Assembly: GCA_964609295.1 (NCBI GenBank)
Contig: CAZSQT010000014.1
Span: forward strand, 1-46,246
DNA length: 46,246 nt
Reading direction: 5' to 3'
From: an uncultured Gammaproteobacteria bacterium
Lineage (GTDB): Bacteria > Patescibacteriota > Microgenomatia > UBA12405
Shown here: positions 1,113 to 46,246 of the stretch, one piece after another
How positions within the stretch are numbered: position 1 is the first letter of the stretch
How the letters are laid out: the number at the start of each line of letters is the position of its first letter
Made by a program: the position numbers and the translations under genes
The notes under the pieces: generated by a model
Database searches by the model: none
The model's input: the letters and a program-made list of their open reading frames with translations, nothing else
Told to the model about the DNA's origin: nothing

Positions 1113-1841
1113 ATGAAGTCAAACAAAAAATATTTAATCTCCGAATTATCATTATTTTTTCCCTGTTATAACGAAGAAAAAAATTTAAGTAATACTATCA
1201 ATAAGGCAATTCCTATTCTAGACGAAACTGCTCAAAGATGGGAAATAATAATTATTAATGATGGCTCAAAAGACAAGACAGAGCAAATTGCCCACAAGAT
1301 CAAGCAACAATACAAAGACAAAGATATCCGTATTATCACCCATAATCCCAATCGTGGTTATGGCGCTGCTCTAAAAAGTGGTCTTTATAATTCCAAATAT
1401 GATTGGATAACTTTTACTGATTCTGATGGACAATTTGATTTTTCTGATATTAAAACCTTAATCAATACTCAAAAAACAAGTAAAGCAGATTTAGTTATAG
1501 GCTTTTATCTTGGCAGAAAAGTTCCTTTTTATCGTATTTGGGGTTCTAAATTATGGCAATTAGCTGTTTTTGTTTTGTTTGGCCTTAAGGTCAAGGATAT
1601 TGATTGTGGCTTTAAATTAATCAACAAAAAAGTAGTCGATACTATTCCTAAGCTCGAAGCTGAAAGAGGCCCATTTATTTCTTCCGAATTTTTGATCAAA
1701 GCCAAAAGAGCCAAATTCAAAATAGTTGAAGTTGGTGTTCACCATTTTAGTCGACAAGAAGGGGAGGCCACAGGGGCTAATCTAGATGTTATCTTAGCCG
1801 GATTAAAAGATCTTATTAGACTTAGATTTAAAATAAAATGA
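1113..1841 (+). CDS. GT2 glycosyltransferase, DPM1/GtrB/ArnC-like polyprenyl-phosphate sugar synthase
   Basis: 242 aa. Motifs: FFPCYNEEKNL, IIINDGSKDKT, GYGAALKSG, FTDSDGQFD (DxD), DIDCGFKL. The stop overlaps the next ATG (ATGA at 1838-1841). Confidence 0.8.
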   Translation: MKSNKKYLISELSLFFPCYNEEKNLSNTINKAIPILDETAQRWEIIIINDGSKDKTEQIAHKIKQQYKDKDIRIITHNPNRGYGAALKSGLYNSKYDWITFTDSDGQFDFSDIKTLINTQKTSKADLVIGFYLGRKVPFYRIWGSKLWQLAVFVLFGLKVKDIDCGFKLINKKVVDTIPKLEAERGPFISSEFLIKAKRAKFKIVEVGVHHFSRQEGEATGANLDVILAGLKDLIRLRFKIK

Positions 1842-3310
1842 TAAAAAGAATTTTTCAAAAACACTGGCCTCTTATCATTATTCTCCTGATTGCTTCCTTT
1901 CTCCGTCTTTATCGCATCTATGATTATGCTGAATTTTTGGGTGATCAGGGCCGAGATATTATCATCGTCAGAGATTTGTTAAAAAATGGTAATTTCTTTT
2001 TTATTGGCCCTGGTACTAGTATTGGCAATATGTATCTCGGCCCATTTTACTATTACCTGATAGCCCCAGCTCTTTTCTTTTCTGGTTTTAATCCAATTGG
2101 CCCTCCTATTTTTATTGCCTTACTTGGTATTGTTACTGTTTATTGTCTTTATTTCATCACTCGTAAATGGTTTGGTCAAAATGTTGCCTTAATTGCCTCT
2201 TTTCTTTATGCTATTTCACCCATCGTTATCAAATATTCTAATTTTTCTTGGAACCCCAATATTATGCCACTTTGTGCTCTCCTTTTTATTTATTTTGTCT
2301 CCGAATCAAAATGGCTATTGGCCTCACTTGCTTTTATTATGGCTCTTAACTCTCACTATTTAGCTTTAGTTTTACTCCCAATCGGTGGTATTTTTTGGCT
2401 ACTTGAATTCATCAAGCATAAACAAAATAAACAAAAAACCACTCTTTTGATCAAAAGCACTCTTTTGGCTGTTTTGGTTTTTGTCATTTCCCTGCTCCCT
2501 CAAATCCTTTTTGATATCAAGCACGAAGGTCAAAATGCTCAAGCCATGACTGAATTTTTTACCAAAAGAGAAACGACTGTCAATATCAAATTTTATAAAT
2601 CTTTTTCAAAATTTCCCATACTTTTTAACCAAATCAATACTGACCTTTTGTTTGGTAAAAATCAAGAAATCGCCCCTTATTTTTCAGCTTTATTTGCCCT
2701 ACTTATCATTTACTTATTTTATTTTTATCTCAAACACAAAAACGACAAAAGTTCAAAATATTTTTATTTGATTTTAGCTTGGTATGGCCTTGGTATCCTT
2801 GGCCTTGGTCTCTACAAACAACACATTTATAGCCATTATTTCGGTTATATTTTTCCTGTTGTTTTTATTTTGGCTGCTCTTTGTATCCAAAAAACCAAAA
2901 TAATAGGATTTGCCTTTATGCTCGCTTTGATAATCTTATCTATATTGGGTAACGACTTTTGGCATGCACCACCTTCTCAAATTAGAAAAACCGAAAAAAT
3001 TGTTGACCAAATAATTGATAAAGCTAACAACGATGATTTTAATTTAGCTCTAATTGCCAAACAAAATTATGACACTCCTTATCGCTATTTTATGTTAGAA
3101 AAAGAAGCTAAAATAGTTGATGCCAATCAAAAAATTGCTTCTCAACTTTTTGTTATTTGTGAACCTCACCCCGACATTGATTGCAATCCTATCAATCATC
3201 CTGAATGGGGAATAGCTTCCTTTGGCTGGGCTAAGATTGATCAACAATGGGAAGTAGAAGGTGTTAAACTATTCAAGCTAGTTCACAACTTACTCAGTAT
3301 ACCCCAATAA
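1838..3310 (+). CDS. Polytopic GT-C-type membrane glycosyltransferase, family C (GP..GPxYYY / FEIKH signature)
   Basis: 490 aa with many hydrophobic segments. Motifs: GDQGRDIIIVRDLL..FFFIGPGTSIGNMYLGPFYYYLIAP, SWNPN, FDIKH. It has a soluble C-terminal part. Paralogs are at 3290-4759(-), 6977-8386 and 8386-9576. Confidence 0.65.
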   Translation: MIKRIFQKHWPLIIILLIASFLRLYRIYDYAEFLGDQGRDIIIVRDLLKNGNFFFIGPGTSIGNMYLGPFYYYLIAPALFFSGFNPIGPPIFIALLGIVTVYCLYFITRKWFGQNVALIASFLYAISPIVIKYSNFSWNPNIMPLCALLFIYFVSESKWLLASLAFIMALNSHYLALVLLPIGGIFWLLEFIKHKQNKQKTTLLIKSTLLAVLVFVISLLPQILFDIKHEGQNAQAMTEFFTKRETTVNIKFYKSFSKFPILFNQINTDLLFGKNQEIAPYFSALFALLIIYLFYFYLKHKNDKSSKYFYLILAWYGLGILGLGLYKQHIYSHYFGYIFPVVFILAALCIQKTKIIGFAFMLALIILSILGNDFWHAPPSQIRKTEKIVDQIIDKANNDDFNLALIAKQNYDTPYRYFMLEKEAKIVDANQKIASQLFVICEPHPDIDCNPINHPEWGIASFGWAKIDQQWEVEGVKLFKLVHNLLSIPQ

Positions 3311-4759
3311 AGGGTCTAGCTCTAAGTCGGGATTTTCACACAAAGACGGATTAATATTTTTAATTTCTTTAGGCTTAATCACCCCAATTCCAGAAAATCT
3401 TTTGTCTAAACTGTCAACACTTATATCAAAAGGAGCCACAATATCATATTGTGGAATACTGGGATTAGTTTTCACCACTTTCATTCCCTTATACCAAAAC
3501 AAATATCTAAATCCAACACCATTTCCTGGGGAAGCAATATAATTTATAGAAATACAAGGATAATTATTTTCTCTAGCATCATTGACAATATAATTAGTTA
3601 CCTTATCTTTAATATCGTAACTTTCACTATTAGTATAGTTAAAATTATTTATTAAAACCAAAAAATTTAAACCACAATAAATTATTGCCAAAAAAGTTAG
3701 CATAGACTTATTTTTAATTATTTCAATAAAAAATAAAGAAGTAATTAAAAATACAATTGGAATAAGGTTAGTAAAATAATATTCTGAAACAACTTTTTTA
3801 GAAGTAAACTGAGCCAGCATAATCATAAATACCCAAACAAACATATAGGTAAGTTGTTTTTTATCTAAAATTTTCTTTTTTAATAAATAAAAAGCCATTA
3901 AAACTACTGTCGGCCAAATTATTATAATTGGAAAAGAATCCCAGCCATGTAATAAGCGAAATTGAATTTCTTTAGAACTTGCATCTATTACTTTATTAAA
4001 TTTTTGCCATCCTGTTGGTCCTATATATTCAGATTGCATTGTACTTATTATACTTGTGACTTGGGACCAATTATGCTTAATTTCGAACAACCAAAAAGGA
4101 CTACTAGTTACCAAAAAGATTAAGAAAAAAATAATATATTCTTTTAATTTTATTTTTTTAAAATTTTTTATTATATTACCTTTTCCTGACAATAAATAAG
4201 CCACAATTGGTAGGGGCAAAATAGGTAATAAGGCAATATGAATATGATAAGTTAGTCCTATCAATAAGCCATAAAGATAAAGAATTCTTTTATCTCCCTT
4301 AATTGATTTTAAAATTACATATAAAAATAAAATTGACCACAAAATCGTTGGTTGAGTCGGAACTGACCATCTTTGAAAAAGAGCTATTCCTGTACTACTT
4401 GCTACTAAAAAAGCAATTATTAAGGCCTTTTTTTCTCCCCAAAATTCTTTAACAAAAAAATAAATTGCTCCAATAGAAACAAGACCAATAATCGTTGTTA
4501 CCAAGATAGAGCTTAAGGGGTTCATTCCAAAAATCCAATAAGCAAAAGCGATCATGTAATAATAAAGAGGACCAATAAAAACACCATCAACACTAGTAAT
4601 TTGCCCCACCAATCTCCAATGTCCATTTAAAACAATATCTTTAGCTATCCAAGAATAAAGATCATGATCATGAGCCCAAGAAAAGCTATATCTATAACCA
4701 AAAATCAAAAAAAATAAACCTAATACTAGAATTAAGTATAATTTTATCTTATTATTCAT
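3290..4759 (-). CDS. Polytopic GT-C-type membrane glycosyltransferase, family C
   Basis: 489 aa. Motifs: SWAHDHDLYSWIAKDIV..WRLVGQITSVDGVFIGPLYYYMIAFA and WLFEIKHNW. It has a C-terminal soluble domain. The 3' end overlaps the convergent gene 1838-3310 by 21 nt. Confidence 0.65.
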   Translation of the reverse strand: MNNKIKLYLILVLGLFFLIFGYRYSFSWAHDHDLYSWIAKDIVLNGHWRLVGQITSVDGVFIGPLYYYMIAFAYWIFGMNPLSSILVTTIIGLVSIGAIYFFVKEFWGEKKALIIAFLVASSTGIALFQRWSVPTQPTILWSILFLYVILKSIKGDKRILYLYGLLIGLTYHIHIALLPILPLPIVAYLLSGKGNIIKNFKKIKLKEYIIFFLIFLVTSSPFWLFEIKHNWSQVTSIISTMQSEYIGPTGWQKFNKVIDASSKEIQFRLLHGWDSFPIIIIWPTVVLMAFYLLKKKILDKKQLTYMFVWVFMIMLAQFTSKKVVSEYYFTNLIPIVFLITSLFFIEIIKNKSMLTFLAIIYCGLNFLVLINNFNYTNSESYDIKDKVTNYIVNDARENNYPCISINYIASPGNGVGFRYLFWYKGMKVVKTNPSIPQYDIVAPFDISVDSLDKRFSGIGVIKPKEIKNINPSLCENPDLELDPLLGYTE

Positions 4760-4766
4760 ATATAGA

Positions 4767-4772: not shown

Positions 4773-4789
4773 ACCTAAGTTTAATCAAC

Positions 4790-5557
4790 ATGAGTAATAA
4801 TAAACAAATCTCCATCATTATCCCTTGCTACAATGAAGAGAAAAATTTAAACAATGGCGTGCTGGATGATGTTTATGATTTTTTATCTCAACAAAAATAT
4901 GATTGGGAAGTTTTGATTTGCAATGATGCTTCTACTGACAATAGTCTGCAAATCGCTCAACAATATGCCCAAAAATATAAAAATTTTCGAGTTTTAGATT
5001 TACCCCATGGCGGTAAACCTGGTGCTGTTTGGGGTGGTATTAAAGAAGCTAAATATAACCTTGTTTTGTTTACTGATATGGATCAATCAACTCCTATAAT
5101 CGAATTAAACAAACTACTTCCTTATTTTGACCAAGGTTTTGATGTTGTTATTGGCTCCAGAGGGTCTCTTCGTGAAGGAAATAGTATGATTAGAAAAATT
5201 ATGGCTTCTGCATTTCTTACCTTTAGAAGGTTATTGCTTTTACCCAATATTATTGACACTCAATGCGGTTTCAAAGCTATGCGTACTGAATTAGCCAAAA
5301 AAATATTTCCCCAATTAGCCTATTTTAAGGAAAAAAATCAATCAGGTTGGCGTGTATCCGCCTTTGATGTTGAACTGTTATTTATGGCCAAAACTTGGGG
5401 TAATACAATTAAGGAAGTACCAGTAAAATGGCAAGATGAAGATTTGTCAGATACTAAAGGCAACAAATTTGATAGATTCAAAAAAGAATCGATTACTATG
5501 GCCAAAGAAATATTAAGAATAAAAATTAATCAAATTAAAGGTGTCTACAAAAAATAA
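4790..5557 (+). CDS. GT2 glycosyltransferase, ALG5/DPM1/GtrB-like polyprenyl-phosphate sugar synthase
   Basis: 255 aa. Motifs: ISIIIPCYNEEKNL, ICNDASTDNS, FTDMDQSTP (DxD), VIGSR, IIDTQCGFKA. Confidence 0.8.
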   Translation: MSNNKQISIIIPCYNEEKNLNNGVLDDVYDFLSQQKYDWEVLICNDASTDNSLQIAQQYAQKYKNFRVLDLPHGGKPGAVWGGIKEAKYNLVLFTDMDQSTPIIELNKLLPYFDQGFDVVIGSRGSLREGNSMIRKIMASAFLTFRRLLLLPNIIDTQCGFKAMRTELAKKIFPQLAYFKEKNQSGWRVSAFDVELLFMAKTWGNTIKEVPVKWQDEDLSDTKGNKFDRFKKESITMAKEILRIKINQIKGVYKK

Positions 5558-6980
5558 TTCGCTTAACTATTTTCACTTATTTTGTCTAACCATTGCCTAT
5601 TTTTTTAGTCGCTTATTTGCCTTAACCAAAATTCCTGTTTTTGCCGATGAAGCTATTTATATTCGCTGGTCACAAATTATTCGTTCTGTTGAAACCTTAA
5701 GATTTGTCCCTCTAACCGATGGTAAACAACCACTTTATATGTGGCTTCTTTCTGTAATAATTGAAAAAATAAATGATCCCTTATTTGCTGGTCGACTGAT
5801 TTCTGTTATTGCAGGATTTGGCTCACTAGTAGGTCTTTTTTTAATTGCCAAATATATCGCCAATTATAAAACCGCTCTGATTGTTTCTTTTCTTTATATT
5901 ATTTTACCCTTCACTTTTTTCTTTGACAGGATGGCTCTGGCAGATAATTTGTTAAGTATGTTTGGTATCTGGTCTTTGTATTTGAGTCTAGTTGTTGCCA
6001 AAACCAAAAGATTAGATTTTAGCCTTATTTTGGGAATGATTTTAGGTCTAGCTTGGTTGACCAAATCTCCTGCCATTTATTTTATTGTTTTATTTTTGAT
6101 TACTTATATCTTAATAAATTTCAAAAAGATAAAACTCTACGATATTTACCTTATTACTATTCCTCTTATAATTTCTTTTATTATTTACAATATTTTACGA
6201 CTTGGACCACAATTTCACATGATAGCCCTTAGAAACAAAGATTATGTTCACCCCTTAAGTGAAATCTTAAAACACCCCCTAGATCCACTCAAGCCCCATC
6301 TCATTGATTATTTTAATTTAATATTTTTTTACATTTCTCTCCCTGTATTTTTTGCTTTTTTTGCCAAGAATAAATATCTACTAATTCTTTGTTGTTGGGC
6401 ATTTCTTCCTGTAATTTCCAATTCGGCTATGGCCAAAGTTTTTACTGCTCGTTATATTTTATACACCATTCCTTCTTTGATAATAATTATTTCACTTGGT
6501 TTTGAAGCTTTAATTAAAAAATTTAAGTATCCATTAATCCTTTTTCTTTTATTTATTCCAAACATTATTTTAATTTCCAATTTATATTTTCGCCCAAAGC
6601 AAGTTAAATTACCCTCAATCGATATGGGACATTTAATTGGCTGGACTTCAGGCTGGGGAATTAAAGAAAGTTCTCTTTATCTTAAAGAGCGCAGTAAAGA
6701 GGTCAATGTTATCGTTGGCACCGAAGGCTATTTTGGTACTTTACCCGACGGACTCCAAATTTATACCCAAAATACAAATCAATTAACTGTTTTTGGAGTT
6801 GGTATTGATATTAAAGAAATCCCAGAAAAATTAATCGATGCCAAAAATCATGGCGACGAAGTCTATATGTTGTTCAACCAATCTCGCCTAGATATTCCCC
6901 AAACCGAGTTAGACAAATTAACCTTAGTGTCTCAATACCCCAAACCAGACGGTGATAAACTAGTTTTATATAAACTATGA
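5541..6980 (+). CDS. Polytopic GT-C membrane glycosyltransferase, ArnT/PMT_2-like (family D)
   Basis: 479 aa. First external loop FADEAIYIRWSQ...LTDGKQPLYMWLL, then AGRLISVIAG, FFFDRMALADNLL and LAWLTKSPAIYF. The paralog is 27126-28694. GTG start overlaps the upstream gene by 17 nt. Confidence 0.75.
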   Translation: MSTKNNSLNYFHLFCLTIAYFFSRLFALTKIPVFADEAIYIRWSQIIRSVETLRFVPLTDGKQPLYMWLLSVIIEKINDPLFAGRLISVIAGFGSLVGLFLIAKYIANYKTALIVSFLYIILPFTFFFDRMALADNLLSMFGIWSLYLSLVVAKTKRLDFSLILGMILGLAWLTKSPAIYFIVLFLITYILINFKKIKLYDIYLITIPLIISFIIYNILRLGPQFHMIALRNKDYVHPLSEILKHPLDPLKPHLIDYFNLIFFYISLPVFFAFFAKNKYLLILCCWAFLPVISNSAMAKVFTARYILYTIPSLIIIISLGFEALIKKFKYPLILFLLFIPNIILISNLYFRPKQVKLPSIDMGHLIGWTSGWGIKESSLYLKERSKEVNVIVGTEGYFGTLPDGLQIYTQNTNQLTVFGVGIDIKEIPEKLIDAKNHGDEVYMLFNQSRLDIPQTELDKLTLVSQYPKPDGDKLVLYKL

Positions 6981-9576: not shown

Positions 9577-9583
9577 TTTATAG

Positions 9584-9589
9584 TAAAAT
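9584..9589 (+). promoter_or_regulatory. -10-like hexamer TAAAAT, 6 nt upstream of ATG 9596 (possible internal promoter)
   Basis: The 19-bp gap 9577-9595 reads tttatagTAAAATatagagATG. Confidence 0.3.
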
Positions 9590-9595
9590 ATAGAG

Positions 9596-14354: not shown

Positions 14355-15290
14355 ATGAAAAATAAACCCTTAATTTCAGCGGTAATCAATACCAGGAATG
14401 AAGCCAAAACTCTAGACAAATGCCTTAAATCTCTCAAAGATTTTGCTCAAGAAATAATTATTGTTGATATGGAGTCAACAGACGATAGTCTGAAGATAGC
14501 CAAACGATATCAAGCCAAAATTTTCAAACACAAATTTCTTCCTGTGGTAGAACCAGCCAGAAATTATGCTCTTTCAAAAGCCACTGGCAAATGGATAATT
14601 CTTCTTGATCCAGATGAATATCTTTCTCGAACTCTCAAAAAAGAATTAAAAAATATTACCAAGCGTCACGATGTTGATTTTGTCAAAATTCCTAGACAAA
14701 ACTTTATTTTTGGAAAATGGATGAGACATTCCAAATGTTGGCCTGATTACCTAATTAGATTTTTCAAAAAATCCCATGTTTCCTGGAAAGATGAAATTCA
14801 TAGTCAACCAGAGACTAAAGGTAGCTGCTTAACCCTTCTTGATTCCGAAAAGTTAGCCATAAAACACAACAATTACCCCAATGTATCATCATTTATCACT
14901 AGAGCTCTTCGTTATAGCAACACTCAAGCCGAAGAATTATTAAAACAAGATTATAAAGTAAAAACTAGTGATTTTATTTTAAAACCAACTCAAGAATTTA
15001 ATAGCCGTTTCTTTTATTCTCAAGGTTACAAAGATGGACTACACGGTCTTATTTTTTCCCTTCTTCAAGCTTTTACTATCGCGTTAATTTATATCAGACT
15101 TTGGGAAAAACAAGGTAGTCAAGAAAAAGTTTTAGCCAAAGAATCCTTTATCTCTGCCAGTCAAGAATCAAATTACGAATACAGTCATTGGTTTACCCAG
15201 TATTTCACCGGTGAATATTCACACAATATCTTTAAAAATTTCATTGTCAAAATTAGACACATTTTAAATCGTATTAGTAAAAATTTCTAA
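14355..15290 (+). CDS. GT2 glycosyltransferase (WaaE/KdtX-like subfamily)
   Basis: 311 aa. Motifs: ISAVINTRNEAKTL, IIIVDMESTDDS, LDPDEY (DxD). C-terminal amphipathic GLHGLIFSLLQAFTIALIYIRLWE. Paralogs are at 16204-16992 and 38158-38964. Confidence 0.75.
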   Translation: MKNKPLISAVINTRNEAKTLDKCLKSLKDFAQEIIIVDMESTDDSLKIAKRYQAKIFKHKFLPVVEPARNYALSKATGKWIILLDPDEYLSRTLKKELKNITKRHDVDFVKIPRQNFIFGKWMRHSKCWPDYLIRFFKKSHVSWKDEIHSQPETKGSCLTLLDSEKLAIKHNNYPNVSSFITRALRYSNTQAEELLKQDYKVKTSDFILKPTQEFNSRFFYSQGYKDGLHGLIFSLLQAFTIALIYIRLWEKQGSQEKVLAKESFISASQESNYEYSHWFTQYFTGEYSHNIFKNFIVKIRHILNRISKNF

Positions 15291-15292
15291 CT

Positions 15293-18173: not shown

Positions 18174-18174
18174 T

Positions 18175-19047: not shown

Positions 19048-19050
19048 ATA

Positions 19051-23831: not shown

Positions 23832-23833
23832 AA

Positions 23834-27103: not shown

Positions 27104-27109
27104 GAAGAT

Positions 27110-27119: not shown

Positions 27120-27125
27120 TTTAAT

Positions 27126-28694: not shown

Positions 28695-28702
28695 TTTTAA
28701 AT

Positions 28703-36603: not shown

Positions 36604-38161
36604 AAAAATATTTTTTATACTAATTTTAGCCTTAATACTCAGAAGTATTTTTATCAATACCACTCCCGCTCTCAATCCTGACGAAGCAGCCCTTGGCTAC
36701 AATGCTTATTCTATTATTAAAACCGGTAAAGATGAACATGGCCACTCTTTTCCTCTTCATCTAAAATCCTTTGGTGATTATAAACCCGCTTTTTATACCT
36801 ATCTTAGTATTCCAAGTATTGCCATTTTTGGACTTAATCCTTTTTCAGTTAGATTACCAAACATTATTCTTTCTGTTTTAGCAATTTATTACACTTATCT
36901 ACTAATTTATCTATTAACTAAAAACAAAAAACTAGCCCTATTAACCGCTCTAATTTTAAGTATCTCTCCTTGGCACATTCATTTTTCTCGTGGCGCTTGG
37001 GAATCATCCACTGCCTTATCTTTTATCATTATCGGCACCTATTATTTTTTTAAAGATAAAAAATATTTATTTATCCTTTTCTACGCCCTCTCTCTCTACA
37101 CTTACCATTCCGCCCGTCTTATTGCTCCACTATTAGCCCTAACTCTACTAGTCACCAATTACCATTTACTAATTACCAACTTAAAGAAATGGTTTTTACC
37201 ACTTCTTTTTGGTATTTTAATCTGCATTCCTGTCCTTTTTTCTTTTCTCAACAATGGTGGCACTGCTCGATTTTCTGGTGTCGGTATCACCGCCGACAAA
37301 GGCCCACTTAATAGAAGTGAGGAGCTTTTAAATCACCACAACAACGTTAAACTCATCAATAGAGTTATTCACAACAAAAGAGTCCTTTATATTCTTTCTT
37401 GGTCAGAAAAATATCTTTCTCATTTTAATTTTAATTTTCTTTTCAATGAAGGTGATGCCGTCCCACGCTCCAAAATACCCAATATGGGACTTTTGTATCT
37501 TATCGAATTACCTCTCTTAATATATGGCATTTACAAATCCCTCCAAAGTTCTAAAGTTCTAAAGCTCCAACGTTCCAACTCTCTATTTCTCCTCTGGCTT
37601 CTTATTGCTCCTATCGCCTCTAGTATAACCTTTCAAGCCCCCAGCGCCCTCCGGGCCCTTTTTATGATCATCCCTTTAACTTACTTTATCGCCCTTGGTA
37701 TTTATCATTTACCCAAAATTAGTCACTATGTGCTACTTCCCCTTTATATTTTTTATTTTGCCTTTTATCTCCATTCTTACTTTGTCCAATATGTCAAAAT
37801 CTATCCTTTTGCTTGGAATTATGGATTTTCGAAAGTTGTTCCCTATGTCCAAGACAATAAAGATAAATACGATCACATCTATTTCACCAACAAATACGAT
37901 CAACCATATATTTTATATCTCTTTTTTAGCCAATATGATCCAGTCAAAATTCAAAATCAAATAGAGTTAACTCCTCCCGATCAATTTGGATTTCAAACCG
38001 TCGATCACATTGATAACATTACTTTTTTTATTCCCCAACAATACGACAAAATTGAAAGCAATTCTTTGATTGTCGCTTCAGATGAAATCATTCCCTTATC
38101 TACCAAAAAAAACTTTATGTTCCCCGACGGTTCTTCGGGGTATAATATATATATCAAATGA
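36593..38161 (+). CDS. Polytopic GT-C membrane glycosyltransferase, PMT_2-like family A
   Basis: Motifs: NPDEAALGYNAYSIIKTGKDEHGHSFPLHLKSFGDYKPAFYTYLSIP, SPWHIHFSRGAWESS, FLFNEGDAVPRSKIP. The start is set at ATG 36593 (MKIKKIFF), the same TATGAAAA junction as at 35062. The track start at 36575 is a TTG extension. Confidence 0.75.
   Translation: MKIKKIFFILILALILRSIFINTTPALNPDEAALGYNAYSIIKTGKDEHGHSFPLHLKSFGDYKPAFYTYLSIPSIAIFGLNPFSVRLPNIILSVLAIYYTYLLIYLLTKNKKLALLTALILSISPWHIHFSRGAWESSTALSFIIIGTYYFFKDKKYLFILFYALSLYTYHSARLIAPLLALTLLVTNYHLLITNLKKWFLPLLFGILICIPVLFSFLNNGGTARFSGVGITADKGPLNRSEELLNHHNNVKLINRVIHNKRVLYILSWSEKYLSHFNFNFLFNEGDAVPRSKIPNMGLLYLIELPLLIYGIYKSLQSSKVLKLQRSNSLFLLWLLIAPIASSITFQAPSALRALFMIIPLTYFIALGIYHLPKISHYVLLPLYIFYFAFYLHSYFVQYVKIYPFAWNYGFSKVVPYVQDNKDKYDHIYFTNKYDQPYILYLFFSQYDPVKIQNQIELTPPDQFGFQTVDHIDNITFFIPQQYDKIESNSLIVASDEIIPLSTKKNFMFPDGSSGYNIYIK
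37543..37582 (+). repeat. Degenerate octanucleotide tandem array (ccaaagtt ctaaagtt ctaaagct ccaacgtt ccaactct) inside the family A GT-C gene
   Basis: Read directly. Consensus is C-Y-A-A-N-N-Y-T x5. It encodes SSKVLKLQRSNS. Confidence 0.7.
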
Positions 38162-38964
38162 AAAATAACAAAATAAAGCTCTCTATCGCTCTTGCTACTT
38201 ACAATGAAGAAAGTAATATCAAAAAATTTTTGGAAAATTTTTCTGATATCGGTGATGAAATTATTATTGTTGATGGTCAATCTAGCGACAATACTGTCAA
38301 AATTGCCCAAAAATACCCAAAAGTTAAAATCATATCAACCACCAACAAGCCAATGTTTCACTTAAACAAACAAATGGCCATTGATGCTTGTCAAGGTGAT
38401 TGGATTCTTCAAATGGATGCTGATGAGTTATTGACTCCTCAACTTAAAAAAGAAATAAAATCAATTGTTGGACAAAATCCCGAGGAAATAGAATATAACG
38501 GTTTTTGGATTAAAAGAAAAAATTTTTTCTTGGGATCTTTTTTAAAAAAAGGTGGTGTCTATCCTGATCCTACTATTCGTCTCTACAAAAATGGCAAAGG
38601 CCATTTACCTTGCCAAGATGTTCACGAACAAGCCCACATAGATGGTAAAATCGGCTGGCTCAAACACGATATGGAGCATTATGCCGACCCATCCTTTTCT
38701 CGATATCTACTTCGTGCCAATCGCTACACCACTCTTTTGGCCCAACAATTAAAAGAACAAAAAGTGCCTCTAAATTTTTCTTCTTTTTTTAAATATTACT
38801 TTCTTTTACCAAATTGGTGGTTTTTTAAAACATTTTTTAGACACCGTGGTTTTATGGACGGACTTCGCGGTTTTGTCTTTTCTTATTTTTCTGCCCTTCG
38901 TTTTCCTATTGCTTACACCAAATATTATGAATTAAAACAAAATATAACTCAAGGATGGGCATAA
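38158..38964 (+). CDS. GT2 glycosyltransferase (WaaE/KdtX-like subfamily)
   Basis: 268 aa. Motifs: LSIALATYNEESNI, IIIVDGQSSDNT, MDADEL, GLRGFVFSYFSALRFPIAYTKYYE. ATGA overlap with the upstream gene. Confidence 0.75.
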   Translation: MKNNKIKLSIALATYNEESNIKKFLENFSDIGDEIIIVDGQSSDNTVKIAQKYPKVKIISTTNKPMFHLNKQMAIDACQGDWILQMDADELLTPQLKKEIKSIVGQNPEEIEYNGFWIKRKNFFLGSFLKKGGVYPDPTIRLYKNGKGHLPCQDVHEQAHIDGKIGWLKHDMEHYADPSFSRYLLRANRYTTLLAQQLKEQKVPLNFSSFFKYYFLLPNWWFFKTFFRHRGFMDGLRGFVFSYFSALRFPIAYTKYYELKQNITQGWA

Positions 38965-38965
38965 T

Positions 38966-39988
38966 ATGAAAATAGGCGTTATCGGTTCACCCCTCCAAGA
39001 TGGCAATAAAATTCGTGGTGTTGGTTTCTACACCAAAAACCTTTTTGAAAATTTAAAAAATACTGACTTAATTACCAGTTACCAGTTACCAATTACCAAT
39101 TACGATCTCATCCACTATCCCTTTTTTGACCCCTTTTCTCCGACTTTAAAAATATTCAAAACTCCCACCATCGTTACTGTCCACGACCTTATTCCTCTTC
39201 AATTCAAAAAACATTTTCCAGTTGGTGTTAGAGGTATTATCAACTGGTATCGACAACTTTTTAATCTTCGCCGTGCCACAGCCATCATTACTGTCTCCAA
39301 TTACTCCAAAAAAATAATACATCAAATTACCAAAATACCTTTAGAAAAAATTCATGTCACTTACTTGGCTCCAGATAAATTTTGTAAACCAATTACTGAC
39401 AAAAAATTTCTCCAAAAAATTAAAGAAAAATACAAATTACCTTCAAAATTTGTCCTATATGTAGGGGATATCAATTGGAACAAAAACATTCCCTCGCTTG
39501 TTAAAATATGTCAAAAATTAAATTATCCTCTAGTTATTGTAGGCTCTAGTGCTGTCAAAAAAGATGTTCCCAATCATCCTTGGACACAAGATATCCTCTA
39601 CCTCCAATCAAAATCTAAAGATCTAACGCTCCAAGGTTCTAACACTCTAATATTCACCGGTTTCATCCCCGACGAAGAACTTCCTGCCATTTACTCTCTA
39701 GCCACTATCTATTGCCAACCATCTCACGCCGAAGGCTTTGGTCTCCCTCCTCTTCAAGCCATGGCCTGTGGCTGTCCTGTCATCTGCAATTTTCAAACTT
39801 CCTTAAAAGAATTATATGAAAAATACTCCCTTCCTTTTGATAAAGAAAGTTTCAAAAAATTATGGAACAATTCAAAACTCAGATCAAAATATTCTCAACT
39901 TGGCTTAAATTATTCTAAAAATTTTTCTTGGTCAAAAACTGCTCAAAAAACTCTTCAAATTTATGAAAAATATCAAAAAACAAAATAA
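38966..39988 (+). CDS. GT4 (GT-B fold) glycosyltransferase
   Basis: 340 aa. Motifs: TVHDLIPLQF, FVLYVGDINWNKN, FTGFIPDEELPAIY, HAEGFGLPPLQAMACGCPVICN. The gene contains a 7-nt tandem repeat at 39072-39103. Confidence 0.8.
   Translation: MKIGVIGSPLQDGNKIRGVGFYTKNLFENLKNTDLITSYQLPITNYDLIHYPFFDPFSPTLKIFKTPTIVTVHDLIPLQFKKHFPVGVRGIINWYRQLFNLRRATAIITVSNYSKKIIHQITKIPLEKIHVTYLAPDKFCKPITDKKFLQKIKEKYKLPSKFVLYVGDINWNKNIPSLVKICQKLNYPLVIVGSSAVKKDVPNHPWTQDILYLQSKSKDLTLQGSNTLIFTGFIPDEELPAIYSLATIYCQPSHAEGFGLPPLQAMACGCPVICNFQTSLKELYEKYSLPFDKESFKKLWNNSKLRSKYSQLGLNYSKNFSWSKTAQKTLQIYEKYQKTK
39072..39103 (+). repeat. Heptanucleotide tandem repeat (TTACCAG x2, TTACCAA x2, plus partial TTAC) inside the GT4 gene 38966-39988
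   Basis: Read directly: ttaccag ttaccag ttaccaa ttaccaa ttac, encoding ITSYQLPITNY. The unit length is not a multiple of 3. Confidence 0.85.
39615..39654 (+). repeat. Second copy of the degenerate octanucleotide array (ctaaagat ctaacgct ccaaggtt ctaacact ctaatatt) inside the GT4 gene
   Basis: Read directly. Nt 39614-39649 match 37550-37585 at 31 of 36 positions, in the same codon phase. It encodes SKDLTLQGSNTL. Confidence 0.65.
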
Positions 39989-40724
39989 TCACTTTTTATC
40001 TCTAATAGTTCCTGTCTACAAACAAGAAAAAACTATCAAAAAAGATATCTTAAATATCTTAAAAACTCTTTCTCAAATTCGTTACAATTATGAAGTTATT
40101 GTTGTTGTGGACGGTCTTTTTGTTGACACTTCTTATTTTATTTTAAAAAAAATAAAACAACCCAAACTCAAATTAGTTGCCCTAAAAAGAAATCATGGCA
40201 AGGGTTTCGCCATCAGAAAAGGTATGAGTCAAGCTAAAGGCGATTATATCGCTTTTATTGACGCCGGTATGGAGATTGACCCCAACGGTATTTCAATGAT
40301 TTTGGAACACATGGAATGGTATAACGCCGATATTATTGTCGGCTCCAAAAGACATCCGGCTTCACAAATATCTTATCCATTGGAAAGAAAAATTGTCAGT
40401 TTTTTTGCTCAAATTTACGCCAAATATTTTCTAGGGCTCAACATCACTGACACTCAAGCAGGCCTAAAAATATTCCGCAAAAAAATTCTCCAAAAAGTTT
40501 TACCAAAATTATTGGTCAAACAATATGCTTTTGATCTAGAAATTCTCTCGGTTGCTAATCGTTATGGTTTTAAAAGAATCTATGAAGCCCCCATCAAACT
40601 AAATTATAGTTTTGAAAGTTTAACTCATGCCAGTGGTCTCAAAATTTTATGGAAATCTTTAATTGACTCCCTGGCTGTTTTTTATCGATTAAAAATTCTT
40701 CGCTATTATGACCCCAAAAATTAA
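39963..40724 (+). CDS. GT2 glycosyltransferase, DPM1/GtrB-like polyprenyl-phosphate sugar synthase
   Basis: 253 aa. Motifs: LSLIVPVYKQEKTI, VVVDGLFVD, NHGKGFAIRKG, FIDAGMEID, IVGSKRH, ITDTQAGLKIF. Confidence 0.7.
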   Translation: MKNIKKQNNHFLSLIVPVYKQEKTIKKDILNILKTLSQIRYNYEVIVVVDGLFVDTSYFILKKIKQPKLKLVALKRNHGKGFAIRKGMSQAKGDYIAFIDAGMEIDPNGISMILEHMEWYNADIIVGSKRHPASQISYPLERKIVSFFAQIYAKYFLGLNITDTQAGLKIFRKKILQKVLPKLLVKQYAFDLEILSVANRYGFKRIYEAPIKLNYSFESLTHASGLKILWKSLIDSLAVFYRLKILRYYDPKN

Positions 40725-41667
40725 ATTTTCTATCATTATTCCTATTAGGATAGAAAATGATTATCTCAAAGAAACACTACAAAAATTAAAATTACAAAGC
40801 TTTAAAAATTTTGAAGTATTGGTAATTACCGATAAAATTAGCAAAAAATCTTCTCCTGCTTACAAAAGAAACCTTGGCGCAAAAATGGCAAAAGGCCAGT
40901 TTTTAGCTTTTATTGATGATGATTCTTATCCACACCGACACTGGCTTAAAAATGCCTCTAAAATTTTACAAAAATACAAAAATCTCGCTGCTGTTTGTGG
41001 CCCTTGTCTTACTCCACCCAAGGATAATATTTATCAAAAAGCTTCTGGTTTAGTCTGGAGTAGTCTACTTGGTAGTGGGGGAGCCGGTACCTACCGTAAC
41101 CAAATTAGTTCCGCTCGCTTTGTTGATGATTTTCCTTCAGTCAATCTCATTGTCAACAAAGAAGATTTTGTTAAGGTTAAAGGATTTGATACTCATCACT
41201 GGCCAGGTGAAGACACTATTCTTTGTCTCAATCTAACTAGTAAGCTCAATAAAAAAATCCTCTATCATCCATCAATTAGGGTGTATCATCATCGCCGTGA
41301 AGTTATCAAAAAACATCTTCAACAAATTACTCGTTATGCTCTTCATCGCGGTCTTTTTGCTCGAATTTATCCGCAAAATAGCCGTAAAATAGGATATTTT
41401 TTACCAAGCCTATTTTTTGTATATCTCATCACCCTACCTATTACCAAAATTTTTTGGCCCTTATATTTATATCTAATTCTCTTATTTGCTAATTTACTTA
41501 ATTATTTATTCACTTATCCATTTTATTTATCCCTACTCGCTACTATCACCATCCCCATAACCCATATATACTATGGAGTGTTATTTATTAAAGGCTATTT
41601 TTCAAAAAATCTAGATTTTAATCCCCACCATGTCAACAAAAAAACCGGCAAATACATCGGCGGTTAA
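40708..41667 (+). CDS. GT2 glycosyltransferase with a C-terminal membrane anchor (about 3 TM)
   Basis: 319 aa. Motifs: FSIIIPIRIEND, AYKRNLGAKMAKGQFLAFIDDDSYP, WPGEDTILCLNL. C-terminal hydrophobic IGYFLPSLFFVYLITLPI...LYLYLILLFANLL...ITHIYYGVLFI. Confidence 0.7.
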   Translation: MTPKIKFSIIIPIRIENDYLKETLQKLKLQSFKNFEVLVITDKISKKSSPAYKRNLGAKMAKGQFLAFIDDDSYPHRHWLKNASKILQKYKNLAAVCGPCLTPPKDNIYQKASGLVWSSLLGSGGAGTYRNQISSARFVDDFPSVNLIVNKEDFVKVKGFDTHHWPGEDTILCLNLTSKLNKKILYHPSIRVYHHRREVIKKHLQQITRYALHRGLFARIYPQNSRKIGYFLPSLFFVYLITLPITKIFWPLYLYLILLFANLLNYLFTYPFYLSLLATITIPITHIYYGVLFIKGYFSKNLDFNPHHVNKKTGKYIGG

Positions 41668-43039
41668 GATTGCTATTTCTTATCCTCCCTTAGTTTCCAA
41701 AAAAGGTCGTCCCTTTTTGTCCCAAAATCGCCAATTTCAATGGACTAATACCAAAAATATTATTTACCCTGTTGTCCCTGCTTCAGCTGCTACTCTTTTA
41801 AAATCAAAAGGTTATCAAGTTTTTTGGGATGATGCTATCGCCCAAAATCTTTCTTTTAATCAATGGTTTATTAGATTAAAAAAAGAAAAACCTGATTATA
41901 TCGCTATCGAAAGCAAAACACCTGTTATCAAAAAACATTGGCAAATAATTAAAAAAATTAAAAAAAATCTTCCGGAAACAAAAATTATTCTTATGGGAGA
42001 TCATGTTACTGCCCTACCACAAGAATCCTACAAAAATTGCCCTATTGATCACATTATTATTGGTGGCAATTATGATTTACTTCTCTTAGATTATATCTCT
42101 GGCAAAAAAAATAATCTTAGCGTCCAAAATTTACCCCAAATTGATCGTCAATTAACACAATGGCAATTGTATGCCTATCAAAATACTAATTTTAAATATC
42201 GCCCTGGTGCTTATACCATGTTTGGCCGAGATTGTTGGTGGGGGAGATGTACTTTCTGCTCCTGGACTACTCTTTTTCCCGGAAAATGTTACCAATCTTA
42301 TACTCCAAAACAAGCCTTCAATGAAGTAAAAAATCTAATAAAATTAGGTGCTAAAGAAATTTTTGATGATTCCGGTACTTTTCCAGTAGGTAATTGGCTT
42401 AAAGAATTTTGCCAACTTATCATAAAAAACAATCGGGCAACTGGCAAGCATATTAGATTTGGTTGTAATATGCGTTTTGGTGCCTTAAGTGAAAAAGATT
42501 TTAAACTAATGCATCAAGCTGGATTTCGTTTTATGCTTTTTGGTCTCGAATCAGCCAATCAAAAAACCTTAGACAAAATCAATAAAAATAATAAAGTAGA
42601 AAATATTATCCCCACCCTAAAACTTTGTAAAAAATATCACATTGATGCTCATCTGACTGTTATGGTTGGTTACCCTTGGGAAACAAAAAAAGAATTAGAC
42701 AAAACTATTAATTTTGTTCGTCAAATATTTAAACAAAATCTAGCTGCCAGCCTTCAAGCAACTATTATTATCCCTTATCCAGGAACACCACTCTTTAAAT
42801 ACTGCAAAAGAAAAAAACTTCTTTTAACCAAAAATTGGGATAAATACGATATGCGTCAAGCAATTATAAAAACCAAAAATCCTAAATATCTAAAAACTGC
42901 AGTTCAAAATTTATTTAAAACAATTATTACTCCTCGATATATTTTAGGAAAAATTTTCAATATTAGATCAGTTAGCGATATTAAGTTTTTATTTTTTTAC
43001 GCTATTAAATATTTAAAAAAATTAAATGATTTCCGTTAG
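41630..43039 (+). CDS. Radical SAM enzyme with an N-terminal cobalamin(B12)-binding-like domain (class B-like)
   Basis: 469 aa. Rossmann-like N-terminus DYIAIESKTPVIKKHWQIIKKIKKNLPETKIILMGDHVTALP. Cys triad GRDCWWGRCTFCSW at nt 42233-42259. Later FGLESANQKTLDKINK and MVGYPWET are typical of radical SAM TIM-barrel strands. Confidence 0.75.
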   Translation: MSTKKPANTSAVKIAISYPPLVSKKGRPFLSQNRQFQWTNTKNIIYPVVPASAATLLKSKGYQVFWDDAIAQNLSFNQWFIRLKKEKPDYIAIESKTPVIKKHWQIIKKIKKNLPETKIILMGDHVTALPQESYKNCPIDHIIIGGNYDLLLLDYISGKKNNLSVQNLPQIDRQLTQWQLYAYQNTNFKYRPGAYTMFGRDCWWGRCTFCSWTTLFPGKCYQSYTPKQAFNEVKNLIKLGAKEIFDDSGTFPVGNWLKEFCQLIIKNNRATGKHIRFGCNMRFGALSEKDFKLMHQAGFRFMLFGLESANQKTLDKINKNNKVENIIPTLKLCKKYHIDAHLTVMVGYPWETKKELDKTINFVRQIFKQNLAASLQATIIIPYPGTPLFKYCKRKKLLLTKNWDKYDMRQAIIKTKNPKYLKTAVQNLFKTIITPRYILGKIFNIRSVSDIKFLFFYAIKYLKKLNDFR

Positions 43040-45103: not shown

Positions 45104-45104
45104 A

Positions 45105-45725: not shown

Positions 45726-45733
45726 ATATAGGT

Positions 45734-45739
45734 TACAAT
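45734..45739 (+). promoter_or_regulatory. -10-like hexamer TACAAT, 6 nt upstream of ATG 45746
   Basis: The 20-bp divergent gap 45726-45745 reads atataggtTACAATaagttaATG. Confidence 0.35.
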
Positions 45740-45745
45740 AAGTTA

Positions 45746-46246
45746 ATGAAAAAACTTTTAATTATAGCTAATAATAACATTGGTCAAGGTCAAAGTGGTG
45801 GAGATACCATTTTTTTGAATTTTATAAAATACTGGCAAAAAGATTTAAATATTACCGTCTTGGGTAGTCAAGAGACCAAAGATTTACTCAAAAGATATCA
45901 ACTGCAAAAAATTAAATTTATCAAAACTGATGACGAAACCAATCTTCCCTTACTCTTTCATCAAATCAGAAGAATTATTAAAGGTATTAAAAGCATCTAC
46001 AAACTACGAACTAAACACTATGATCTAATTTATACTGTTTCTGATTTTTATCCTGACTTAATCCCTGGACTCATCTACAAAGCTTACAAACACCAGAGTA
46101 AATTAATTTGTGGTTATTATCTTTTTGCCCCAAATCCTTTTGACTCCCAATCTCCATATATTCAAACCGATCAATTTTTTAAAGGTCTCTTTTATTACCT
46201 TTCTCAATTACCAAGCCGTTTGGCTGTCAATTTGTGGGCTGATATA
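45746..46246 (+). CDS. Probable GT4/GT-B glycosyltransferase, 5' part only (runs off the window); not in the supplied ORF track
   Basis: ATG at 45746, with the frame open for 167 codons to the window end. Translation MKKLLIIANNNIGQGQSGGDTIFLNFIKYWQKD...DLIYTVSDFYPDLIP resembles a GT-B N-terminal Rossmann domain. Confidence 0.5.
   Translation, partial: MKKLLIIANNNIGQGQSGGDTIFLNFIKYWQKDLNITVLGSQETKDLLKRYQLQKIKFIKTDDETNLPLLFHQIRRIIKGIKSIYKLRTKHYDLIYTVSDFYPDLIPGLIYKAYKHQSKLICGYYLFAPNPFDSQSPYIQTDQFFKGLFYYLSQLPSRLAVNLWADI

Follow-up and report, generated by a model that had tools for sequence, protein, structure and literature searches.

The contig CAZSQT010000014.1 of assembly GCA_964609295.1 (46,246 nucleotides; this whole stretch is called the window below) carries between positions 1113 and 46246 a dense block of glycosylation genes, and 18 of them encode polytopic membrane proteins related to glycosyltransferases (GTs) of the GT-C fold. 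Our data suggest that this locus is a lipid-carrier assembly line for a complex cell-surface glycan, either part of a glycoprotein or linked to the cell wall, and we give this reading a probability of roughly 60%. As a general claim, it is probable that these polytopic proteins are outer-face glycosyltransferases that depend on polyprenyl-phosphate sugars. An earlier reading made from the letters of the contig, hereafter the sequence-only reading, had proposed an elaborate extracytoplasmic assembly line for a glycan or glycoprotein, and that proposal is supported here: its counts of genes, its tight packing and its recognition of GT-C enzymes all hold.

Under the standard bacterial code, the window contains 39 complete open reading frames (ORFs), named g1 to g39 in order, and one 3'-truncated ORF at 45746-46246. 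The ORF listing and Pfam together place 38 genes in 1113-46246, namely 11 GT2, 4 GT4, 18 polytopic proteins and five others (a Wzx-type flippase, a B12-radical-SAM (S-adenosylmethionine) enzyme, a methyltransferase and two small bitopic proteins). The sequence-only reading had listed the same 11 GT2, four GT4 and single Wzx, B12-radical-SAM enzyme and methyltransferase, and Pfam, together with the full-length GT4 of a relative, confirmed this inventory. Non-coding DNA in the region amounts to 123 bases (0.27%), where less than 1% had been estimated, and genes overlap at 25 of the 31 same-strand junctions. Only g5, the unit g22-g24 and g39 lie on the minus strand, and no tRNA genes were found in the window. 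The GT-C genes occupy 27.7 kb, or 61% of the region, and the GT2 and GT4 genes 29%. The GT-C family is usually represented by a handful of genes per genome, and the density observed here is therefore far above chance. An assembly artefact is excluded for the array because the same order recurs in independent assemblies. A mobile element or an assembly chimera was also rejected, since synteny is kept on chromosomal contigs of hundreds of kb, and recent tandem amplification was rejected because the paralogues are merely 23-39% identical. A repeat search of the window DNA detected no recent duplications, invertible segments or phase-variation tracts; it returned only old paralogue similarity and AT-rich low complexity. 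The window as a whole is AT-rich (GC 0.24-0.34). The GC content is 0.24-0.27 in 6000-10000 and 22000-30000, where the less conserved GT-C genes lie, whereas the conserved backbones of GT2 and GT4 genes have values of 0.30-0.34; the low GC may be no more than a consequence of the residues that membrane proteins use.

A crude hydropathy scan, in which no dedicated topology predictor was used, gave 6-12 peaks in each of the 18 polytopic proteins. Eleven of them score above the Pfam gathering thresholds for GT-C families: g4, g5, g7, g22, g25, g29, g30 and g31 for PMT_2 or PMT, g18 and g28 for YfhO (cut-off 28.5 bits; g18 scores 72.6 and g28, through its C-terminal part alone, 29.9), and g20 for GT87 (E 5.6e-6, 26.7 bits against 25). 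Three more, g10, g26 and g27, fall slightly below threshold in Pfam, the latter two for PMT/PMT_2, and are clear paralogues of passing genes in BLAST (g10 with g28 at E 3e-91 and 37% identity, g26 and g27 with g31 at E 1e-30 to 1e-52). For g8 and g9 there was no Pfam match; hhalign joins them to the g4 family with probabilities of 99.4 (E 2.5e-21) and 99.7 (E 2e-26), and BLAST gave E values of about 1e-12. The remaining two, g12 and g23, are treated separately below. The GT-C proteins other than g12, with the small genes that lie among them, are as follows.

g4, 1838..3310, plus strand: GT-C of the PMT_2 type, group A (E 1.2e-9, 39.1 bits against 26.1), loop-1 motif GDQGRD
g5, 3290..4759, minus strand: GT-C of the PMT_2 type (E 1e-9), group A, loop-1 motif HDHD
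g7, 5541..6980, plus strand: GT-C of the PMT_2 type (E 2.3e-13), group B, loop-1 motif ADEA
g8, 6977-8386, plus strand: divergent group A GT-C, loop-1 motif HTDIARD
g9, 8386-9576, plus strand: divergent group A GT-C, loop-1 motif YDQG
g10, 9596..11317, plus strand: GT-C of 573 aa, group D, PMT_2 below threshold (E 6.7e-5), loop-1 motif HDDM
g18, 19051..21279, plus strand: YfhO-family GT-C of 742 aa (E 3.2e-20)
g20, within 22040..23831, plus strand: GT87-type GT-C of 400 aa
g21, 23226-23831, plus strand: bitopic protein of 201 aa, hydrophobic at both ends, partner of g20
g22, 23834-25462, minus strand: GT-C of the PMT_2 type, group C
g23, 25459-26691, minus strand: divergent group C paralogue, acidic loop-1 motif absent
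g24, 26684-27103, minus strand: single-transmembrane protein of 139 aa, DUF5667 below threshold
g25-g31, 27126..38161, plus strand: seven tandem GT-C genes (Pfam PMT, PMT_2 and YfhO), of which g29, g30 and g31 are PMT-like with the loop-1 motif W/P-D-E

An Asp-containing motif (D-E, D-D, H-D, D-Q, D-M or D-I) stands in loop 1 shortly after the first transmembrane helix in 17 of the 18 proteins, the exception being g23, and its position is that of the catalytic loop-1 Asp of GT-C enzymes. The proteins form four paralogue groups, A (g4, g5, g8, g9), B (g7, g25), C (g22, g26, g27, g29, g30, g31, with g23) and D (g10, g28), and three singletons, g12, g18 and g20; hhalign detected no link of g12 or g20 to the other GT-C groups of the window. 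The tandem g25-g31 is accordingly mixed, with g25 from group B, g28 from group D and the other five from group C. BLAST relates g5 to g4 at E 1e-22 and g7 to g25 at E 4e-34, and for EpsG there was only a sub-threshold Pfam match on g4. In group C, D36-E37 is invariant in the family alignment and is aligned with the D-E of yeast Pmt4, and the group C profile matched PDB sequences marginally (Pmt4 at E 0.11, ArnT and STT3 at E 0.6). Pfam reported no MIR domain in group C. Bacterial Pmts also have no MIR domain, and its absence excludes the eukaryotic subtype only. NCBI names for g31 relatives include 'GT family 39' and 'phospholipid carrier-dependent glycosyltransferase'.

Identity within the paralogue groups is 23-39%, without high-identity DNA repeats, whereas orthologues across genomes are 41-82% identical; in the tandem g25-g31 the corresponding values are 24-39% and 43-64% (orthologues in the relative loci L002 and L005-L010; loci of relatives are cited by L number). 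Because orthologue identity exceeds paralogue identity and high-identity repeats are absent, the GT-C copies are old and individually conserved, which suggests that each enzyme performs one distinct step. The protein g23 had just 12 relatives among 5.8 billion proteins. In hhalign it aligns with the family of g31 at a probability of 96.5 (E 8e-10), and in its loop 1 a conserved NYPPxxxQ replaces D-E. With an alignment of 12 sequences, AlphaFold2 modelled g23 only moderately well (pLDDT 74.8), and Foldseek gave no significant match to the model, so its GT-C status depends on hhalign; g23 is a probable GT-C paralogue, possibly a non-catalytic one. We count 17 supported GT-C proteins and one probable, g23, and the 16 confident and 18 possible GT-Cs of the sequence-only reading were, if anything, slightly cautious. 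Interpretation of the polytopic proteins as transporters was rejected on fold and family evidence. None of the 28 proteins scanned against NCBIfam scored above the curated cut-offs, and therefore no specific function can be transferred to them. The small protein g21 travels with the GT87-like g20 in relatives (the pair measures 365 + 193 aa in L049 and 406 + 201 aa in L050), and g24 travels with the g22/g23 unit; both may be accessory subunits.

The flippase and the orphan membrane protein g12 are encoded by two overlapping genes.

g11, 11290..12726, plus strand: Wzx-type flippase for lipid-linked glycans, of the multidrug/oligosaccharidyl-lipid/polysaccharide (MOP) superfamily, polysaccharide transporter (PST) type (Polysacc_synt_3 E 2.6e-46, Polysacc_synt E 1.5e-20)
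g12, 12705..14339, plus strand: protein of 544 aa with a membrane domain and a C-terminal globular domain, belonging to no sequence family

The overlap is 22 nucleotides, and Wzx and g12 are likewise adjacent, with overlapping frames, in L044, in L046 and in the distant L048, where g12 is about 36% identical. There was no Pfam or NCBIfam match for g12, and no Pfam match at E <= 1 in any of 41 family members. Its 589 close relatives are all unnamed or called 'hypothetical protein', and where an organism is given it is in almost every case Candidatus Shapirobacteria; a profile search extended the family to 1343 representatives at 50% identity. A comparison of the family profile with PDB sequences returned no oligosaccharyltransferase (OST) at E <= 10 and nothing else of relevance. 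The AlphaFold2 model of g12 from the 41-sequence alignment has a pLDDT of 90.5 and a pTM of 0.91, and its 15 best PDB matches in Foldseek are all STT3 (yeast, human), archaeal AglB, bacterial PglB or DPY19, with E values of 3e-7 to 7e-5 and TM-scores (TMq) of 0.42-0.52. DPY19 is a C-mannosyltransferase, and STT3, AglB, PglB and DPY19 are all GT-C enzymes that act on peptides. AftA comes next after these (E 1.6e-3), and Pmt1/2 and EmbB are much worse. The C-terminal globular domain alone matches the C-terminal domain of AglB (3vu0, TMt 0.53-0.57), and the invariant residues of the family include H43-D44 in loop 1, E155, D269-R270 and a C-terminal Y-E-T triplet. The sequence-only reading had named transporters as an example of another fold that the polytopic proteins might have, and here the g12 model matches OSTs with a probability of 1.00 and major facilitator superfamily transporters with one below 0.15. 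As modelled, g12 is a GT-C fold of the OST type and is not a sequence member of that family. Its fold, its invariant pairing with Wzx and one Wzx-DUF3863-g12 fusion (record P0172, 1639 aa, Wzx at the N-terminus) suggest a transferase role. The specific role of passing the Wzx-flipped glycan to the final acceptor is a tentative assignment, to which we give slightly less than an even chance. About 40 other g12-family proteins, besides P0144 and P0158, are 850-1150 aa long (also L048:8001-11465) and have an N-terminal signal anchor and an extracytoplasmic domain of about 430 aa ahead of the g12 module. This domain is DUF3863 in precomputed Pfam and had no match in a fresh scan.

The cytoplasmic enzymes of the locus comprise the following genes.

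GT2 genes, 11 in Pfam, plus strand: starts at 1113, 4790, 14355, 15293, 16204, 18136, 21252, 38158, 39963, 40708 and 43026
Complete GT4 genes, three in Pfam, plus strand: starts at 16965, 38966 and 44009
Truncated GT4, 45746-46246, plus strand: cut by the window end
g3, 1113..1841, plus strand: soluble GT2 (Glycos_transf_2 E 4e-32), its stop overlapping the g4 start
g6, 4790..5557, plus strand: soluble GT2 (Glycos_transf_2 E 2.4e-27), overlapping the g7 start
g13-g17, 14355..19047, plus strand: GT2, GT2, GT2, GT4, GT2
g19, 21252..22064, plus strand: GT2 (Glycos_transf_2 E 4.3e-28) that closes the central cytoplasmic block
g32-g35, 38158..41667, plus strand: GT2, GT4, soluble GT2 and GT2 with two C-terminal transmembrane segments
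g36, 41630..43039, plus strand: B12-binding radical SAM enzyme (Radical_SAM E 2e-18, B12-binding E 1e-5)
g37, from 43026, plus strand: GT2 with two transmembrane segments (Pfam)
g38, from 44009, plus strand: GT4 (Pfam)
g39, 45105-45725, minus strand: SAM methyltransferase

Three of the soluble GT2 proteins, g3, g6 and g34, are predicted to be polyprenyl-phosphate sugar synthases. The best PDB matches of g3 are ArnC (E 1e-16, residues 9-221), GtrB sll0501 and the Dol-P-Man synthase of P. furiosus; those of g6 are GtrB (E 1.6e-12), Dol-P-Man synthase and ArnC, and those of g34 are the same three enzymes. The matches span most of the catalytic domain in each case, and the control GT2 proteins g17 and g37 rank generic GT2 enzymes first (chondroitin synthase, ppGalNAc-transferases). 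ArnC, GtrB and Dol-P-Man synthase load a sugar onto polyprenyl phosphate, and the presence of three such GT2 proteins in the locus gives indirect support for the use of polyprenyl-phosphate donors by the GT-Cs. The overlaps g3/g4 and g6/g7 have the layout of known 'three-component' systems of a GT2 and a GT-C (PMC11127046). The block g13-g17 is predicted from its families to build a lipid-linked oligosaccharide; its order is kept at 51-68% identity in L044, L046 and L050 and is found also in the distant L048. Orthologues of g19 are 57-58% identical, those of g32-g35 are 56-82% identical with their order kept in more than 10 genomes, and the truncated GT4 shares 60% identity with the N-terminal half of a complete Glycos_transf_1 protein that stands at this position in L002. 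The nearest NCBIfam models for g36 are HpnJ, BchE and a lipid B12-radical-SAM model, all below cut-off, and g36 is predicted to modify a sugar or a lipid-linked sugar by C-methylation or rearrangement. A core of g34-g35-g36-g37 homologues (GT2, GT2, B12-radical-SAM, GT2) occurs without GT-C arrays in L013, L017, L027-L029 and L033 (around 10001). These contigs carry the labels Acidimicrobiia, Ferrimicrobium and Eremiobacterota/Vulcanimicrobiota, and identity is 36-50%; the core may be a module in its own right that makes a modified lipid-linked sugar. In relatives, one to three further B12-radical-SAM paralogues, 22-31% identical to g36, lie in or near the locus, an unusual finding in organisms that would not be expected to synthesise cobalamin.

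Further B12-radical-SAM paralogues in relatives: L002:18272-19606; L006:11488; L010:14559 and 16002; L039:16563 and 18060

Protein similarity identifies the host as a Shapirobacteria- or Woesebacteria-like Microgenomate of the Candidate Phyla Radiation (CPR). The best genomic relatives of g36 are Candidatus Woesebacteria (65%), Shapirobacteria and other metagenome-assembled genomes (MAGs) of Microgenomates, and the relatives of g12 and g31 carry Shapirobacteria labels, in line with the small-genome CPR host that the sequence-only reading had suspected from composition and compaction. Homologues lie on contigs of 0.74-1.1 Mb, which are probably near-complete genomes. Since this is the size expected for whole genomes, the 45 kb of the locus would be about 4-5.6% of the genome. 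Radical-SAM gene homologues are also carried by 11 third-party-annotation (TPA) MAG contigs titled 'uncultured Gammaproteobacteria bacterium' (L003, L009, L014, L016, L021, L024, L030, L034, L038, L039 and L042), and the g30-g38 order is found on five of these (L003, L009, L034, L038 and L039) at 40-70% identity. The title of contig L023 is Bathyarchaeia, and the label Methanoperedens is attached to a homologue of g12. All three labels look unreliable.

The locus is conserved across the clade and is not peculiar to one genome. The synteny comparison proposed earlier showed a gene order conserved in many related genomes, with GT-C content variable in places: GT2 + GT-C cassettes, Wzx-g12, a GT2/GT4 block, an array of 9-11 GT-C genes and a GT2/GT4/radical-SAM block. 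The 3' part (g28-g39) occurs in at least nine genomes at 43-82% identity, and L044 and L046 share the 5' part (g3-g19). The middle, corresponding to g17-g31, recurs in the close relative L049 with YfhO, the GT87 and small-protein pair and the inverted g22-g23 unit, and in L050 nine polytopic genes link the central GT block to the 3' block. In the distant L048 the GT2-PMT_2 pair occurs twice, followed by Wzx overlapping the start of the g12 homologue, and then by GT2, a polytopic gene, GT2, GT2, GT4 and GT2. Positional orthologues exist for the cytoplasmic backbone and for about half of the GT-Cs; the latter (g4, g7, g9, g10, g12 and g28-g31) keep 41-64% identity across deep divergences. Single orthologues reach 59% for g4 and for g7 (both in L044), 48% for g5 (L046, likewise on the minus strand) and 61% for g10 (L044, L046), which stands directly upstream of Wzx in a conserved position. 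The variable genes include g18, which is present in L049 and absent from L044, L046 and L050, as well as g23, and L046 has three extra polytopic genes after g12. A PhdYeFM antitoxin/ParE toxin pair is inserted within the locus in L048 (5096-5648). In the Shapirobacteria relative L047, the g16 GT4 orthologue is split at 18490-19628 into 128 + 240 aa (99 + 234 aa in the gene calls of the record), which reflects a frameshift or pseudogene or a sequencing error. The contiguity of the array described by the sequence-only reading holds. The locus does not end at the window edge; in relatives it continues for at least 7 kb. Past the position of the window end, L002 has a GT4-like gene, two genes for NAD-dependent sugar epimerase/dehydratases, another B12-radical-SAM gene and one for a polytopic protein with tetratricopeptide repeats (TPRs). 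The latter, a protein of about 575 aa with 9-10 transmembrane segments and C-terminal TPRs, is conserved among relatives where the locus ends downstream, and its architecture recalls the eukaryotic TMTC O-mannosyltransferases.

Polytopic TPR protein, outside the window: L002:19575-21296, minus strand; L006:18083-19810; L039:19564 onward

The variable GT-C content can also be read in another way. The locus could be a set of independent GT2 + GT-C modules that decorate different acceptors, such as S-layer or pilin proteins, teichoic-acid-like polymers and a Wzx-dependent polysaccharide, and their turnover would make the surface vary from strain to strain, which could for instance serve defence against phages or recognition of a host. 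The constant cytoplasmic backbone beside changing GT-Cs is consistent with this, as are the missing g18 in three relatives, the extra polytopic genes of L046, the rarity of g23, the toxin-antitoxin pair inside L048 and the lower GC of the variable blocks, and the GT2-GT-C pairs resemble self-contained cassettes. We consider such a collection of modules very unlikely, however, given that about half of the GT-Cs keep positional orthologues over deep divergences, that three candidate donor synthases stand against 16-17 GT-Cs, that the repeat search gave no phase-variation repeats or invertible elements, and that the whole block shows tight operon-like overlap.

The data show to which families and folds the proteins belong, which motifs they carry, how the genes are ordered and conserved, and the lineage of the host; from this we infer the following order of steps for a single assembly line, along with its donors, acceptor and product and the part played by g12. 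On the cytoplasmic face, g13-g17, g19, g32, g33, g35, g37, g38 and the truncated GT4 would build an oligosaccharide on polyprenyl phosphate, and g36 and g39 would add non-standard decorations. The lipid-linked glycan would be flipped to the outer face by g11. The Dpm1/ArnC/GtrB-like g3, g6 and g34 would make polyprenyl-phosphate monosaccharides, and on the outer face 16-17 GT-Cs of the PMT/PMT_2, YfhO and GT87 kinds would use such lipid-linked donors, each adding one sugar or linkage. Finally, g12 would pass the flipped glycan to its acceptor, for which we lean slightly towards a surface protein. Recurrence of the GT2-PMT_2 pairs in the distant L048 supports the pairing of donor synthase and GT-C, and the genes for nucleoside-diphosphate-sugar epimerases/dehydratases downstream of the locus in L002 are also in line with an assembly line of this kind.

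Several observations weigh against this assembly line. The Pfam scan of the window found no initiating phosphoglycosyl transferase of the WecA/MraY or PglC/WbaP type and no GtrA-like small flippase, Wzy polymerase or LCP (LytR-CpsA-Psr) ligase, and in particular no ORF matched Wzy_C, Wzz, Bac_transf, Glycos_transf_4 (MraY/WecA), GtrA or MatE; initiation, the flipping of donors and attachment thus either lack a candidate gene or rely on genes located elsewhere. The difference in GT-C content between relatives makes a single fixed product a poorer fit. The WWDYG motif, which defines STT3, AglB and PglB and binds the sequon, has no WWDYG- or WWD-like counterpart in any of 41 g12-family members (0/41), and the family has no sequence match to STT3 or to any solved structure. 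AftA, the next fold match of g12 after the OSTs and DPY19, is a monosaccharide transferase. The Wzx-g12 fusion is weak evidence, since it is one sequence on one short contig of 8.8 kb and could be an assembly or frameshift artefact. Moreover, g11 might serve the GT-Cs and not g12, because MOP-family flippases can carry monosaccharide donors, as a MATE flippase carries a polyprenyl-phosphate monosaccharide donor in one described system (PMC11127046).

Some of these observations would fit a wall-associated polysaccharide or lipoglycan that is built residue by residue outside the membrane, as in mycobacterial lipomannan, lipoarabinomannan (LAM) or arabinogalactan, and is not linked to protein. 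In that case g12 would be a priming or branching monosaccharide GT-C, with which its fold match to AftA and its missing sequon-binding motif would agree, and Wzx would export a short lipid-linked primer or donors. The GT87 family, to which g20 is assigned, contains the GT-Cs that build mycobacterial mannans, the broad PMT_2 family also contains enzymes that modify glycans and lipids (ArnT, for example), and the many distinct, individually conserved GT-Cs echo the one-enzyme-one-linkage logic of LAM and arabinogalactan. On the other hand, no window ORF matched the Emb/Aft-type Pfam families, the best fold matches of g12 act on peptides and its C-terminal domain is AglB-like, group C carries the PMT domain with its D-E motif, and a decaprenyl-phosphoribose/arabinose donor pathway and an LCP ligase are absent from the window. 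We regard such a polysaccharide as rather unlikely and favour the lipid-carrier assembly line with transfer by g12.

By analogy, the pathway logic is closest to the Agl pathway for S-layer N-glycosylation in Haloferax volcanii and the ALG/OST pathway of the eukaryotic endoplasmic reticulum. The former consists of the GT2 enzymes AglJ and AglD, the Wzx-like flippase AglR, the GT-C AglS and the oligosaccharyltransferase AglB, and the latter of Dpm1/Alg5, Rft1, the lumenal ALG GT-Cs and STT3. The same parts are predicted here, namely Dpm1-like GT2 proteins, cytoplasmic GT2/GT4 enzymes, a MOP flippase, outer GT-Cs and an OST-fold enzyme, and there are weak NCBIfam cross-matches to AglJ, AglG, Agl23 and a haloarchaeal Dol-P-hexose transferase. 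The locus differs in that g12 has neither sequence similarity to STT3/AglB nor WWDYG, and in that the host is a bacterium. It has 16-17 accessory GT-Cs, while Haloferax has a single one (AglS) and yeast has six of the ALG kind. The Pgl system for N-glycosylation in Campylobacter jejuni (PglB, PglK, PglA/H/I/J, PglC) is likewise compact and combines cytoplasmic GTs with a flippase and an OST-fold protein, and the fold of g12 matches PglB significantly (E 4e-5 to 7e-5). Unlike the locus described here, Pgl has an ABC flippase, the initiator PglC and WWDYG in PglB, and it has no accessory GT-Cs. A bolder reading, which we consider improbable, is that the locus is a CPR counterpart of the archaeal and eukaryotic N-glycan pathway. 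A hitherto unrecognised OST-fold family represented by g12 (about 1300 representatives at 50% identity, none of them annotated), a coupled flippase of the Wzx/Rft1 type and an 'ALG-like' GT-C battery would then work together, with Dpm1-like synthases feeding the 16-17 GT-Cs and a large branched glycan transferred en bloc to surface proteins.

Other known systems share fewer features. In three-component systems (GtrA/GtrB/GtrC, ArnC/ArnT, CsbB/YfhO) a GT2 synthase also stands beside a GT-C, as in g3-g4 and g6-g7, and a YfhO-family member is present here too (g18). In the known systems each locus has a single GT-C, which attaches a side-branch to a glycan synthesised elsewhere, whereas 17-18 GT-Cs make up the bulk of this locus, which has no GtrA-type or MATE flippase and g11 as the sole flippase candidate. 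The described ribose system, for instance, consists of a polyprenyl-phosphoribose synthase, a MATE flippase and GT136 (PMC11127046). Synthesis of arabinogalactan, lipomannan and LAM in mycobacteria and corynebacteria (EmbA/B/C, AftA-D, PimE, MptA-C) uses many outer GT-Cs that each form one linkage, as proposed here, and shares a GT87-type enzyme, and AftA is among the g12 fold matches. It differs in its Emb/Aft sequence families, which are absent here, while this genome is about five times smaller and has its genes in one contiguous block together with Wzx and an OST-like protein. The sequence-only reading described the mycobacterial GT-C genes as dispersed, which is in part incorrect, as embCAB, aftA and aftB are clustered, five GT-Cs in about 30 kb; the contrast it drew still holds with 18 in 45 kb. 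The Pgf system for protein O-glycosylation in Streptococcus mutans (the GT2 PgfS and the YfhO-like PgfM1/PgfM2) likewise pairs a GT2 with YfhO-type GT-Cs, and weak matches link g6 to PgfS and the C-terminal part of g18 to PgfM1/PgfM2 (24-64 bits against NCBIfam cut-offs of 500-1500); its scale and composition are quite unlike those of the window. The Wzx/Wzy pathway shares Wzx (g11). Its polymerase, chain-length regulator and initiating transferase were not found in the window and could be encoded elsewhere in the genome. Group C shares with the PMT enzymes (GT39) the PMT/PMT_2 domain and the loop-1 D-E, but is not closely related in sequence to characterised PMTs.

Three other ORFs of the window lie outside this scheme. 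The gene g2 (404-1018, minus strand), just upstream of the locus, encodes a protein with a signal peptide and a DUF11 domain (E 1.6e-13), and at its C-terminus a VPVTG motif precedes a hydrophobic segment and a tail of R/K residues. It looks like a sortase-anchored surface protein and, with several N-x-S/T sites, could be a candidate glycan acceptor; no g2 homologue was seen in the fetched relative loci, and no record carries exactly its sequence in the look-up made for it. The ORF at 31-399 (plus strand) in the upstream flank matches Peptidase_M23, a peptidoglycan endopeptidase family, solely through its C-terminal residues 70-122, covering positions 1-53 of the 96 model positions before a stop codon, and may be a mis-started, truncated or fragmentary gene. 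An ORF of 101 aa at 38005-38310 (minus strand), antisense across the g31 end and the g32 start, is most likely spurious.

The sequence-only reading regarded the locus as uncharacterised, and we found no description of GT-C arrays, of their conservation or of oligosaccharyltransferases in CPR bacteria in the open-access papers searched, which is not proof of absence. The enzyme classes are already known, since public annotation names single genes as GT39 or phospholipid carrier-dependent glycosyltransferase. CPR bacteria, or Patescibacteria, have genomes of about 1 Mb and very few metabolic genes. In the main study of CPR protein families, Shapirobacteria are among the poorest in metabolic gene families, the terms 'glycosyl' and 'mannosyl' are absent, and CPR-enriched families with many transmembrane segments 'may be involved in transport' (PMC6744442). 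For a specialist, the surprise lies in the scale and contiguity of the locus, in the tiny host genome and in the orphan OST-fold family, with functions deduced from homology and context. The locus reveals a large unannotated protein family with an OST-like fold that is always paired with Wzx. About 17 divergent GT-Cs with co-encoded donor synthases form a compact natural set that could serve GT-C enzymology and glyco-engineering. Because such a tiny genome keeps at least 45 kb (about 5%) for surface glycosylation, the glycan is likely to be central to the biology of the host, with possible roles in, for example, envelope integrity, host attachment or phage defence. If the locus were indeed a counterpart of the N-glycan pathway, extensive extracytoplasmic elaboration of a lipid-linked oligosaccharide by GT-Cs would not be a eukaryotic speciality, and an otherwise minimal cell that depends on a host would be investing heavily in its surface glycan, through which it would plausibly meet that host.

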